DNA of 64,000 nucleotides from Escherichia coli (lineage in GTDB: Bacteria; Pseudomonadota; Gammaproteobacteria; Enterobacterales; Enterobacteriaceae). Positions 20,720 to 24,228 of the stretch are shown here, piece after piece. The stretch is taken from the NCBI RefSeq assembly GCF_002854065.1, contig NZ_CP024147.1, one strand, 5' to 3'. The notes under the pieces were generated by a model, which did not search any database, had not been told where the DNA came from, and worked only from the letters and a program-made list of their open reading frames with translations. The translations under genes and the position numbers were made by a program. How positions within the stretch are numbered: position 1 is the stretch's first letter; each line of letters begins with the position of its first letter.

Positions 20720-21438
20720 CCGAGTTACCAATCGACGAAAACACACCGCGTATTTTGATCGTGGAAGATGAACCGAAGCTGGGGCAGTTGCTCATTGATT
20801 ATCTACGTGCTGCGAGCTATGCGCCGACGCTTATCAGCCACGGCGATCAGGTACTGCCGTATGTGCGCCAGACACCACCGGATCTGATCCTGTTAGATCT
20901 GATGCTCCCTGGCACCGATGGCCTGACGCTGTGCCGGGAAATTCGTCGTTTTTCTGACATTCCGATCGTGATGGTGACGGCAAAAATCGAAGAGATCGAT
21001 CGCCTGCTGGGGCTGGAGATTGGCGCAGATGATTATATCTGTAAGCCGTACAGCCCACGGGAAGTGGTAGCGCGCGTCAAAACCATTTTGCGCCGTTGCA
21101 AACCGCAGCGCGAGTTGCAGCAACAGGATGCTGAAAGCCCGTTGATTATCGACGAAGGTCGTTTTCAGGCTTCATGGCGCGGTAAAATGCTTGACCTGAC
21201 GCCTGCGGAATTTCGTCTGCTGAAAACGCTCTCTCATGAACCAGGAAAAGTGTTCTCCCGCGAGCATTTGCTCAATCATCTTTATGACGACTACCGCGTA
21301 GTAACCGACCGCACCATCGACAGCCACATTAAAAACCTGCGCCGCAAGCTGGAATCTCTCGACGCCGAACAGTCATTTATCCGCGCCGTTTACGGCGTCG
21401 GTTACCGCTGGGAAGCCGACGCCTGCCGCATCGTTTAG
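20716..21438 (+). CDS. baeR: OmpR-family response regulator BaeR
   Basis: 240-aa ORF with receiver domain (ILIVEDEP...DLMLPG) and winged-helix output domain. Confidence 0.9.
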
Positions 21439-21628
21439 TTTTAGCGACATTATTTTGTTAGCCGGAGATGGCGTTCAGACCCGATCCGGCAACATTATCC
21501 CACGCATGGTCAGCAAACTGACATTATCTCTCCGCCCTGGCAGGCATCAGAAAATCGCTCATACTTTAATCGGTAAACAGCACCTTTAGATGCTGTTTTC
21601 GATACACAATTTCAATCAAGGAGTCATT

Positions 21629-21961
21629 ATGGCTGGTTGGTTTGAACTCAGTAAGAGCAGTGATAATCAGTTCCGGTTTGTGCTAAAAGCGGGCAATGGT
21701 GAGACTATCCTCACCAGCGAGCTGTATACCTCAAAAGCCTCTGCGGAAAAGGGCATCGCGTCGGTGCGTAGCAACAGCCCGCAAGAAGAACGCTATGAGA
21801 AAAAAACGGCAAGTAACGGCAAATTCTATTTCAATCTGAAAGCCGCTAATCATCAAATTATCGGCTCCAGCCAGATGTACGCCACCGCACAATCTCGTGA
21901 AACCGGAATTGCCTCCGTTAAAGCCAATGGCACAAGCCAGACGGTGAAAGACAATACGTAA
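21629..21961 (+). CDS. yegP: DUF1508 (YegP) family protein with two internal repeats
   Basis: ORF 21590..21961; start at the Met at 21629 preceded by an aaggag RBS; ~110 aa with two repeated ~50-aa units. Confidence 0.8.
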   Translation: MAGWFELSKSSDNQFRFVLKAGNGETILTSELYTSKASAEKGIASVRSNSPQEERYEKKTASNGKFYFNLKAANHQIIGSSQMYATAQSRETGIASVKANGTSQTVKDNT

Positions 21962-22214
21962 TTACGATGCCGGGCGTGGGTTGTTGGCGTCCGGCTTTAT
22001 ATCCAAATAACGCTTAGTTATTGATAATTAAGAGTAACTGCCGCCATTAAAATAGTGGGCACTGACGAGCACTCGTTGTGCTTTCTTTGTTTACCATCCC
22101 ATACTTATCCTCCTGAACATGTTCATGTGCCAAAATATCTTCTAATACTTTCGTGACGCTATCCGGTTTATGACATACACTGATGTAAGATTTTTACTTA
22201 CAGGCGGGCGTAAA

Positions 22215-22466
22215 ATGGCCAGAACGATGACGGTTGATCTCGGCGATGAGTTGCGTGAATTTATCGAGTCCTTAATTGAATCCGGCGACTATCGCACCCA
22301 AAGCGAAGTGATCCGTGAGTCACTGCGATTACTTCGAGAAAAGCAAGCAGAGTCTCGCCTGCAAGCGTTACGTGACATGCTCGCAGAAGGGTTGAGTAGT
22401 GGTGAAGCTCAGCCGTGGGAAAAGGACGCGTTCTTACAGAAGGTGAAAGCAGGGATAAGGAAATAA
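22215..22466 (+). CDS. Type II antitoxin, ParD/RHH (CopG-like) family
   Basis: ~83-aa product (MARTMTVDLGDELREFIESLIESGDYRTQSEVIRESLRLLREK...) with a ribbon-helix-helix N-terminus typical of ParD; stop lies 1 nt before the toxin start. Confidence 0.75.
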   Translation: MARTMTVDLGDELREFIESLIESGDYRTQSEVIRESLRLLREKQAESRLQALRDMLAEGLSSGEAQPWEKDAFLQKVKAGIRK

Positions 22467-22467
22467 T

Positions 22468-22764
22468 GTGCGTATTATTAAACTCATGCCAAAAGCCAAT
22501 GAGGATTTAGAAGGCATCTGGTATTACAGCTATCACCATTTCGGCGAACCACAAGCCGACAGATATGTGGAACATCTTTCAGACGTTCTCCAGATTCTGA
22601 GTAACAATAATATAGGTACGCCCAGACCTGAATTAGGCGAAGGTATTTTTGTTCTTCCTTTTGAACGCCACGTCATTTATTTCCTGCAATCACCAGGGGA
22701 AATTATCGTCATTCGTATCCTTAACCAAAACCAGGACGCCACCAGACATTTACACTGGAGCTAA
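22468..22764 (+). CDS. Type II toxin, ParE/RelE superfamily
   Basis: 98-aa product (MRIIKLMPKANEDLEGIWYYSYHHFGEPQADRYVEHL...IIVIRILNQNQDATRHL) with the ParE-like pattern; GTG start translationally coupled to the upstream antitoxin. Confidence 0.75.
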   Translation: MRIIKLMPKANEDLEGIWYYSYHHFGEPQADRYVEHLSDVLQILSNNNIGTPRPELGEGIFVLPFERHVIYFLQSPGEIIVIRILNQNQDATRHLHWS

Positions 22765-22866
22765 ACCCGCCGATTGCGCTACAATGCCCGCCCTTAAAGT
22801 GGGGGCACTCCCCTAACCGCTTCATCAGGTGAAGCGGATCTGACCTGTCATCAGAACGAGAGAATT

Positions 22867-24228
22867 ATGTTTAAACCGGAACTCCTTTCCCCGGCGGGAA
22901 CGCTGAAAAATATGCGTTACGCTTTCGCTTATGGCGCAGATGCTGTTTATGCGGGCCAGCCGCGTTATTCCCTGCGTGTGCGCAACAACGAATTCAACCA
23001 CGAAAATCTTCAGCTCGGCATCAATGAAGCCCACGCGCTGGGGAAAAAGTTTTATGTCGTGGTCAACATTGCACCGCACAACGCCAAGCTGAAAACCTTT
23101 ATCCGTGACCTGAAACCGGTGGTGGAAATGGGGCCGGATGCGCTGATTATGTCCGATCCAGGGCTGATTATGCTGGTGCGTGAGCACTTCCCTGAAATGC
23201 CGATCCACCTCTCGGTGCAGGCTAACGCCGTAAACTGGGCGACGGTGAAATTCTGGCAGCAAATGGGCCTGACCCGCGTGATCCTCTCTCGCGAGCTGTC
23301 GCTGGAAGAGATTGAAGAGATCCGCAATCAGGTGCCGGATATGGAGATCGAGATCTTCGTTCACGGCGCACTGTGCATGGCCTACTCCGGTCGCTGCCTG
23401 CTCTCTGGCTATATCAACAAGCGCGACCCGAACCAGGGTACCTGCACCAACGCCTGCCGCTGGGAGTACAACGTCCAGGAAGGGAAAGAAGATGACGTTG
23501 GCAACATCGTACACAAGTACGAGCCGATTCCGGTGCAAAATGTTGAGCCGACGCTGGGTATCGGCGCACCAACCGACAAAGTGTTTATGATCGAAGAAGC
23601 CCAGCGTCCGGGCGAGTATATGACCGCGTTTGAAGATGAGCACGGCACTTACATCATGAACTCGAAAGATCTGCGCGCCATCGCCCATGTTGAACGCCTG
23701 ACCAAAATGGGCGTGCATTCGCTGAAAATCGAAGGTCGTACCAAATCTTTCTACTATTGTGCACGCACCGCACAGGTTTACCGCAAAGCTATCGATGACG
23801 CCGCTGCGGGAAAACCGTTCGATACCAGCCTGCTGGAAACTCTGGAAGGTCTGGCGCATCGTGGCTATACCGAAGGTTTCCTGCGTCGTCATACTCACGA
23901 CGATTATCAGAACTACGAATACGGTTATTCAGTTTCTGACCGCCAGCAGTTTGTTGGTGAGTTTACCGGTGAGCGCAAGGGGGACCTCGCGGCGGTAGCG
24001 GTGAAAAATAAATTCTCCGTTGGCGACAGCCTTGAGCTGATGACGCCGCAAGGCAACATTAACTTTACCCTTGAGCACATGGAAAACGCCAAAGGTGAAG
24101 CGATGCCGGTCGCACCAGGCGATGGTTATACTGTGTGGCTCCCGGTCCCGCAGGATCTTGAGCTAAATTACGCTCTCCTGATGCGTAATTTCTCTGGGGA
24201 AACCACGCGTAACCCACACGGTAAGTGA
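22867..24228 (+). CDS. yegQ: U32-family peptidase-like protein YegQ (RlhA; rRNA hydroxylation factor)
   Basis: 453-aa ORF with U32 peptidase family sequence features. Confidence 0.85.
   Translation: MFKPELLSPAGTLKNMRYAFAYGADAVYAGQPRYSLRVRNNEFNHENLQLGINEAHALGKKFYVVVNIAPHNAKLKTFIRDLKPVVEMGPDALIMSDPGLIMLVREHFPEMPIHLSVQANAVNWATVKFWQQMGLTRVILSRELSLEEIEEIRNQVPDMEIEIFVHGALCMAYSGRCLLSGYINKRDPNQGTCTNACRWEYNVQEGKEDDVGNIVHKYEPIPVQNVEPTLGIGAPTDKVFMIEEAQRPGEYMTAFEDEHGTYIMNSKDLRAIAHVERLTKMGVHSLKIEGRTKSFYYCARTAQVYRKAIDDAAAGKPFDTSLLETLEGLAHRGYTEGFLRRHTHDDYQNYEYGYSVSDRQQFVGEFTGERKGDLAAVAVKNKFSVGDSLELMTPQGNINFTLEHMENAKGEAMPVAPGDGYTVWLPVPQDLELNYALLMRNFSGETTRNPHGK

Follow-up and report, generated by a model that had tools for sequence, protein, structure and literature searches.

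The window analyzed here, a stretch of 64,000 nucleotides from Escherichia coli (NCBI RefSeq assembly GCF_002854065.1, contig NZ_CP024147.1), carries the gene yegP, whose product is built of two related units of the DUF1508 family, each of about 50 residues, in tandem. Our overall explanation, which we consider probable, is that YegP is an ancient two-unit pseudo-dimer whose N-terminal (N) and C-terminal (C) copies have diverged, that its gene is a stand-alone, RpoS-dependent stress gene, and that the protein would act as a binding module. The two-repeat architecture, which an earlier note on this DNA had pointed out, is correct but already known. What is new here is the age of the duplication, the divergence of the copies into an N-type and a C-type, and the ordered N-then-C pair as a module.

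The Two Halves of YegP Are Copies of One Unit

The gene is E. coli yegP, of the UPF0339/DUF1508 family. Translation of positions 21629-21961 of the (+) strand gave the same 110-residue protein as was quoted in the earlier note, and RefSeq places yegP, annotated as 'YegP family protein', at identical coordinates in strain 100416 (100% identity over 1.4 kb). The encoded protein is identical at 109 of 110 residues to that of Protein Data Bank (PDB) entry 2K8E, and with a score of 153.1 bits (E = 1.7e-45) it passed the gathering threshold of Pfam DUF1508 (PF07411), which is 22 bits, the match falling into two stretches. Against the NCBIfam HVO_2922 equivalog model, NF041908, YegP scored 56.5 bits, below the curated cut-off of 90, and is thus related to that protein but not its equivalog.

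A gapless alignment of the two halves of YegP, shifted by 51 residues, had 19 identical positions out of 44 (43%; BLASTP E = 7e-11). The Smith-Waterman score of the halves was 88, compared to 23.7 +/- 4.7 for 5000 shuffles (z = 13.6), none of which equalled it. One profile was made from the N-halves of 20 YegP family members and another from 20 C-halves; hhalign paired 49 of 50 columns of the two (probability 99.7%, E = 6.8e-26), and a hidden Markov model (HMM) of a single repeat matched YegP at residues 3-55 and 54-107. Residues with little or no variation among 29 family members form equivalent pairs in the two halves (F17/F68, L19/L70, A21/A72, N23/N74, S30/S81, Y33/Y84, and G42/G93). These results bear out the claims of the earlier note that YegP is an internal tandem duplication of a ~50-residue unit with a two-repeat DUF1508 architecture; the self-alignment that it had suggested as a check found a significant repeat.

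Structure prediction, the other check that the note had suggested, led to the same conclusion. The AlphaFold2 (AF2) model of YegP, with a predicted local distance difference test (pLDDT) value of 92, has the topology bbba-bbba-b (b, strand; a, helix) and superposes on 2K8E with a template modeling (TM) score of 0.95 and a root-mean-square deviation of 1.1 A in Foldseek. Each unit has a beta-beta-beta-alpha fold, and the units pack as a pseudo-dimer, as in 2K8E. The latter is the nuclear magnetic resonance structure of E. coli YegP, released in 2008, and its tandem has been described in the literature as a symmetric intramolecular pseudo-dimer, with single-domain relatives that homodimerise. 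Pfam gives one or two copies of DUF1508 per protein, and Gong et al. are cited among the prior documentation of the YegP architecture. Because the architecture has been in the PDB and Pfam since 2008, and is explicit in recent papers, the two-repeat observation itself adds nothing new.

The Duplication Is Ancient, and Its Copies Have Diverged as an Ordered Pair

An identity of 43%, over only 44 residues, is modest, and the likeness of the halves could in principle reflect chance or composition, or else a recent and still unstable duplication of DNA. Chance is contradicted by the shuffling test, the hhalign E value, and the two Pfam matches, as well as by the retention of the two-repeat form in hundreds of species. 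A recent duplication conflicts with the DNA itself, where the copies, compared in register, are only 52% identical (41% at third codon positions; 27 +/- 4% in a codon-shuffled control), and a repeat finder detected no direct repeat between them. Both readings are refuted by these tests, and we regard the chance that either is correct as negligible. The duplication is therefore ancient. The two-repeat form is present across Gamma- and Betaproteobacteria.

An exhaustive search of 1.84 billion representative proteins returned 3802 relatives of YegP at E <= 1e-3, many of them long. The number of repeats, as counted with the single-repeat HMM, was mostly even: 37 proteins had 2 repeats, 46 had 4, 20 had 6, and 11 had 8. 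The repeats of these arrays are arranged as directly adjacent pairs, with linkers of ~40-50 residues between the pairs. Each array repeat was scored against separate profiles of the N and C repeats of the YegP family: the first member of a pair preferred the N-profile in 88% of 262 cases, and the second member preferred the C-profile in 87%. Single-domain proteins of Rhizobiales were N-like by 29 bits.

The same distinction is seen at one pair of equivalent positions. At the position of L28, 100% of first repeats and 89% of those in arrays have Leu, and single-domain proteins have Phe. At the equivalent position, that of G79, 93% of second repeats have Gly, and 99% of those in arrays have either Ala or Gly. 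These sequence comparisons show that the two copies of YegP have diverged into an N-type and a C-type. Since the arrays retain both the N-then-C preference and the L28/G79 signature, the ordered, asymmetric N-then-C pair is an evolutionary module that is older than array formation.

Among the long-array proteins, those numbered P0121-P0268, all from outside the window, reach 1561 residues and up to 11 DUF1508 units, arranged as N/C pairs, and one cluster includes an entry from a marine-eukaryote transcriptome. Full-length two-repeat homologues of YegP also occur in phage records (H16-H18), with 65% identity in Acinetobacter phage MD-2021a and 55% in Pseudomonas phage Y10. These homologues belong to PHROG 1422 (E = 1.9e-64), and any match at all was found in only 9 of 50,697 phage records.

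yegP Is Probably a Stand-Alone Gene

A promoter, a Shine-Dalgarno sequence, and a terminator-like hairpin of its own mark yegP as a gene that probably stands alone (Table 1). A constitutive RpoD promoter has been reported between baeR and yegP (Shimada, 2014; PMC3946193), and its sequence is the same here. In an alignment of six enterobacterial loci, the -10 element CATACT and the ribosome-binding site TCAAGGAGT were invariant, while the rest of the spacer diverged. The -10 element is followed by a T/A-rich stretch, compatible with a sigma-S/sigma-70 -10 element; a simple sigma-70 scan did not flag the CTGGCA-17-CATACT promoter. The predicted yegP leader also contains an A/U-rich hairpin of 8 bp (21576-21600, AAACAGCA...UGCUGUUU), a feature of E. 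coli that is weaker in E. albertii and that other enterics do not conserve. An alternative start at the upstream ATG at 21590, which would give a 123-residue open reading frame (ORF), was rejected: it lacks a Shine-Dalgarno sequence, homologues begin with MAGW or MSGW, and the RefSeq start is at 21629. An Rfam scan of 21300-23000 gave no match at E <= 1.

With respect to its regulation, yegP has been listed as RpoS-dependent in EDL933 (Dong and Schellhorn, 2009). Omics papers group YegP with Dps, OsmY, OtsB, ElaB, and YeaG, and yegP has been described in the literature as a hub among genes induced by multiple stresses. The hairpin downstream of yegP (21969-21995) is common to K-12-type genomes, and in the window its T-rich tail is part of an inserted islet. 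The grounds for considering the gene an independent unit are the separate promoter, the invariance of the -10 element and of the Shine-Dalgarno sequence, the terminators upstream of it in sister genera, the downstream hairpin, the RpoS dependence, and the lack of a conserved neighbor.

The earlier note had placed yegP immediately downstream of the BaeSR envelope-stress regulon and immediately upstream of a toxin-antitoxin islet. Both adjacencies stand, whereas a functional link to either neighbor is not supported. yegP lies on the same strand as baeR, 190 bp downstream of it, baeS-baeR-yegP-yegQ is the gene order shared by Escherichia, Citrobacter, Kluyvera, and Enterobacter, and the hairpin 3' of baeR in E. 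coli has no T-run, so that some read-through is possible; on these grounds, yegP might be the last gene of an mdtABCD-baeSR operon or a member of the BaeR regulon, with a role in envelope stress. We consider this improbable. The order was found at 5 of 80 species loci, all of them Enterobacteriaceae, plus Enterobacter contigs, and outside the Enterobacteriaceae yegP was never beside a two-component system. Across the 80 loci there was no widely conserved neighbor of yegP; the neighbors were genus-specific, such as AHSA1, DUF488, and YjdM in Acinetobacter, and a methyltransferase and DUF4917 in Pseudomonas. In the spacer lies a separate promoter, and in Enterobacter, Kluyvera, and a related metagenome-assembled genome, a G+C-rich hairpin with a T-run, which is a canonical terminator, lies between baeR and that promoter. 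The published regulator is RpoS, not BaeR, and the literature surveyed contained no link between yegP and BaeR. Two consensus BaeR-box patterns had no match anywhere in the window, the expected positive control upstream of mdtA included, so that their absence near yegP carries no weight. No signal peptide and no membrane segment was found in the YegP sequence. The position of yegP after baeSR is lineage-specific synteny and probably coincidental.

The adjacency on the other side is likewise coincidental. The parDE islet (21996-22775) is a 780-bp insertion in place of 21 bp of K-12-type spacer, carried by 1843 of 5426 complete E. coli genomes (34%). A functional coupling of yegP to the parDE toxin-antitoxin pair could be read from their proximity, as the islet starts 35 bp after the yegP stop codon; however, the left edge of the islet coincides exactly with the 3' end of the hairpin that follows yegP, and the islet lies beyond that hairpin. 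Of the complete genomes that carry yegP, 66% lack the islet, and K-12-type genomes have yegQ straight after yegP. We therefore give this coupling hardly any credence. Upstream of parD, a palindrome with the core ACATGTTCATGT (22101-22138) is possibly an antitoxin operator. Downstream of the islet lies yegQ (22867-24228), of the peptidase U32 family, which RefSeq now names trhP, prephenate-dependent tRNA uridine(34) hydroxylase.

Table 1. Features in and around yegP, with positions in the window (CDS, coding sequence)
Feature	Position	Strand	Details and basis
Hairpin GCCGGA...TCCGGC	21461-21490	+	Directly 3' of the baeR stop codon, no T-run; fold
yegP promoter	21537-21565	+	-35-like CTGGCA 21537-21542, 17-nt spacer, -10 CATACT 21560-21565
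Shine-Dalgarno AAGGAG	21618-21623	+	Ends 5 nt 5' of the ATG; sequence reading
yegP CDS	21629-21961	+	333-nt ORF, 110 residues plus stop; ORF and translation, RefSeq, 2K8E identity, two Pfam DUF1508 matches
Repeat 1, N-type DUF1508 unit	21638-21787	+	Residues 4-53; self-alignment, AF2, N-type signature L28
Repeat 1 elements			Strands 4-9, 15-20, 26-29; helix 36-49 (residues; AF2 secondary structure, pLDDT 92)
Repeat 2, C-type DUF1508 unit	21791-21940	+	Residues 55-104; self-alignment, AF2, signature NHQxIG with G79
Repeat 2 elements			Strands 56-60, 66-71, 77-80; helix 87-100; extra closing strand 106-109 after the repeat (residues; AF2)
Terminator-like hairpin	21969-22002	+	GCCGGGCG...CGTCCGGC (21969-21995), then TTTATAT; fold and terminator scan
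parD/parE pair	22170-22466 and 22468-22764		On the 780-bp islet

YegP as a Putative Binding Module

In the explanation that we favor, an ancient tandem duplication placed two ~50-residue beta-beta-beta-alpha copies in one chain, and a single YegP chain reproduces the two-domain arrangement that single-domain relatives obtain by homodimerising. The copies have diverged, with the large hydrophobic L28 in the first and the small G79 in the second, and the ordered N-then-C pair was amplified into long multi-pair arrays. The gene is probably expressed from its own stress-responsive unit, and published data have it strongly RpoS-dependent and co-varying with general-stress proteins. The pseudo-dimer would serve as a small, non-enzymatic binding module of stationary phase and stress; a 12-kDa protein with this fold is unlikely to be an enzyme.

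As to the ligand, we propose tentatively that it might be single-stranded nucleic acid or a DNA-damage-related species, a proposal that we hold to be well short of probable. Such a ligand is favored because of the basic character of the family, the C-terminal domain of a tryptophanyl-tRNA synthetase (TrpRS), the position of the tandem in the Menshen sensor NsnA, and the neighbors of capK-capS. The YegP family is mildly basic, with a median isoelectric point (pI) of about 9, and YegP itself has a pI of 9.4. Of 29 members of the YegP family, 19 matched positions 358-405 of the 431 in the NCBIfam profile NF008923 (TrpRS, PRK12284), with a best E of 3.5e-9; judging from this profile match, rather than from a member sequence, a DUF1508-like domain seems to sit at the C terminus of one tryptophan--tRNA ligase family, and would therefore be present once per subunit of a dimeric tRNA synthetase. 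In the Menshen study (PMC12065111), a tandem DUF1508 was found at the sensor position of NsnA and likened to PC4/Whirly, and in the literature 57 pairs of the DNA-damage-responsive regulators capK-capS are followed by a yegP homologue downstream. The conserved surface of YegP comprises K20, N23, S30, and Y33.

Several observations weigh against this explanation or parts of it. Long DUF1508 arrays are acidic (median pI 5.5), which does not favor nucleic-acid binding, and because the search that yielded them started from full-length YegP, they are biased toward the N-then-C order. The only other two-repeat structural match to YegP was a domain of Cis12/All3315, a baseplate protein of an injection system in Anabaena; that setting is structural or one of protein-protein contact. 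The literature surveyed contained no ligand-binding experiment on YegP, PADLOC has no YegP model, and no PADLOC family matched at E <= 0.01. In E. coli itself, read-through from baeR into yegP is possible.

The acidity of the arrays would also be in line with a different function, in which YegP is a module for protein-protein interaction or scaffolding and the tandem simply serves as a stable platform that resembles a dimer. Some bacterial ubiquitin-like (Ubl) proteins have a tandem DUF1508 in front of their beta-grasp domain, and a structural search with YegP gave no match to PC4 or Whirly. However, the DUF1508-Ubl proteins that have been tested were monomers, which indicates that the tandem does not drive oligomerisation, and stand-alone YegP has no conserved gene neighbor as a possible partner. 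Ligand sensing accounts better than scaffolding for the apparent TrpRS fusion and for the sensor position in Menshen. We regard an interaction module as well short of probable, about on a par with nucleic-acid binding, and retain a ligand-binding pseudo-dimer as the preferred explanation.

The residual interest of YegP lies in its ligand, as the family is widespread (~3,800 representative clusters at E <= 1e-3), is strongly induced through RpoS in E. coli, and is associated with defence. Fused DUF1508 modules are found in phage-defence and ubiquitin-like systems, and members of the family also lie downstream of DNA-damage-responsive regulators. The ordered N/C pair, the apparent DUF1508-like domain of TrpRS, and the probable transcriptional independence from baeSR provide handles for binding work; the classification of the protein is unchanged.

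Comparison with Known Systems

YegP of K-12 (2K8E) is the product of the same gene and has the same two-repeat architecture; the sole substitution is at residue 37, which is Ala here and Thr in K-12. T37 of K-12 YegP is a reported phosphosite (PMC8055822). Codon 37 lies at 21737-21739, and E. albertii likewise has Ala37. Of 5397 complete E. coli genomes, 3554 share the same 57 nt around this codon, which makes the A37 type the majority. Because Thr37 is a minority allele, phosphorylation at this residue is, on the sequence distribution, unlikely to be essential.

The protein SO_3888 of Shewanella oneidensis (2K49) is ~65% identical to YegP; it comes from another genus, and no baeSR lies beside the Shewanella locus. 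With regard to the sPC4/Whirly superfamily, the Menshen study claims that the tandem DUF1508 is an intrinsic dimer of similar topology, whereas our structural search recovered no similarity to PC4, Whirly, or PurA-type domains.

Fused counterparts of YegP occur at the N terminus of Menshen NsnA, in Bub ubiquitin-like proteins, and apparently at the C terminus of a TrpRS. It is conceivable, although we consider it unlikely, that stand-alone YegP is the free form of a sensing head that is otherwise fused to effectors, a subfunctionalised, asymmetric pseudo-dimer that would recognise single-stranded or damaged nucleic acid in stationary phase or upon DNA damage. If this were true, the conserved difference between L28 and G79 would be the sign of one directional binding groove, of a kind that is impossible in a symmetric homodimer. 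The single-domain UPF0339 proteins HVO_2922 (6Q2Z), NMB1088 (3BID), and Atu0232 (2K7I) have one repeat per chain, and their dimer is therefore symmetric and intermolecular, whereas YegP is a covalently fused, asymmetric pair.
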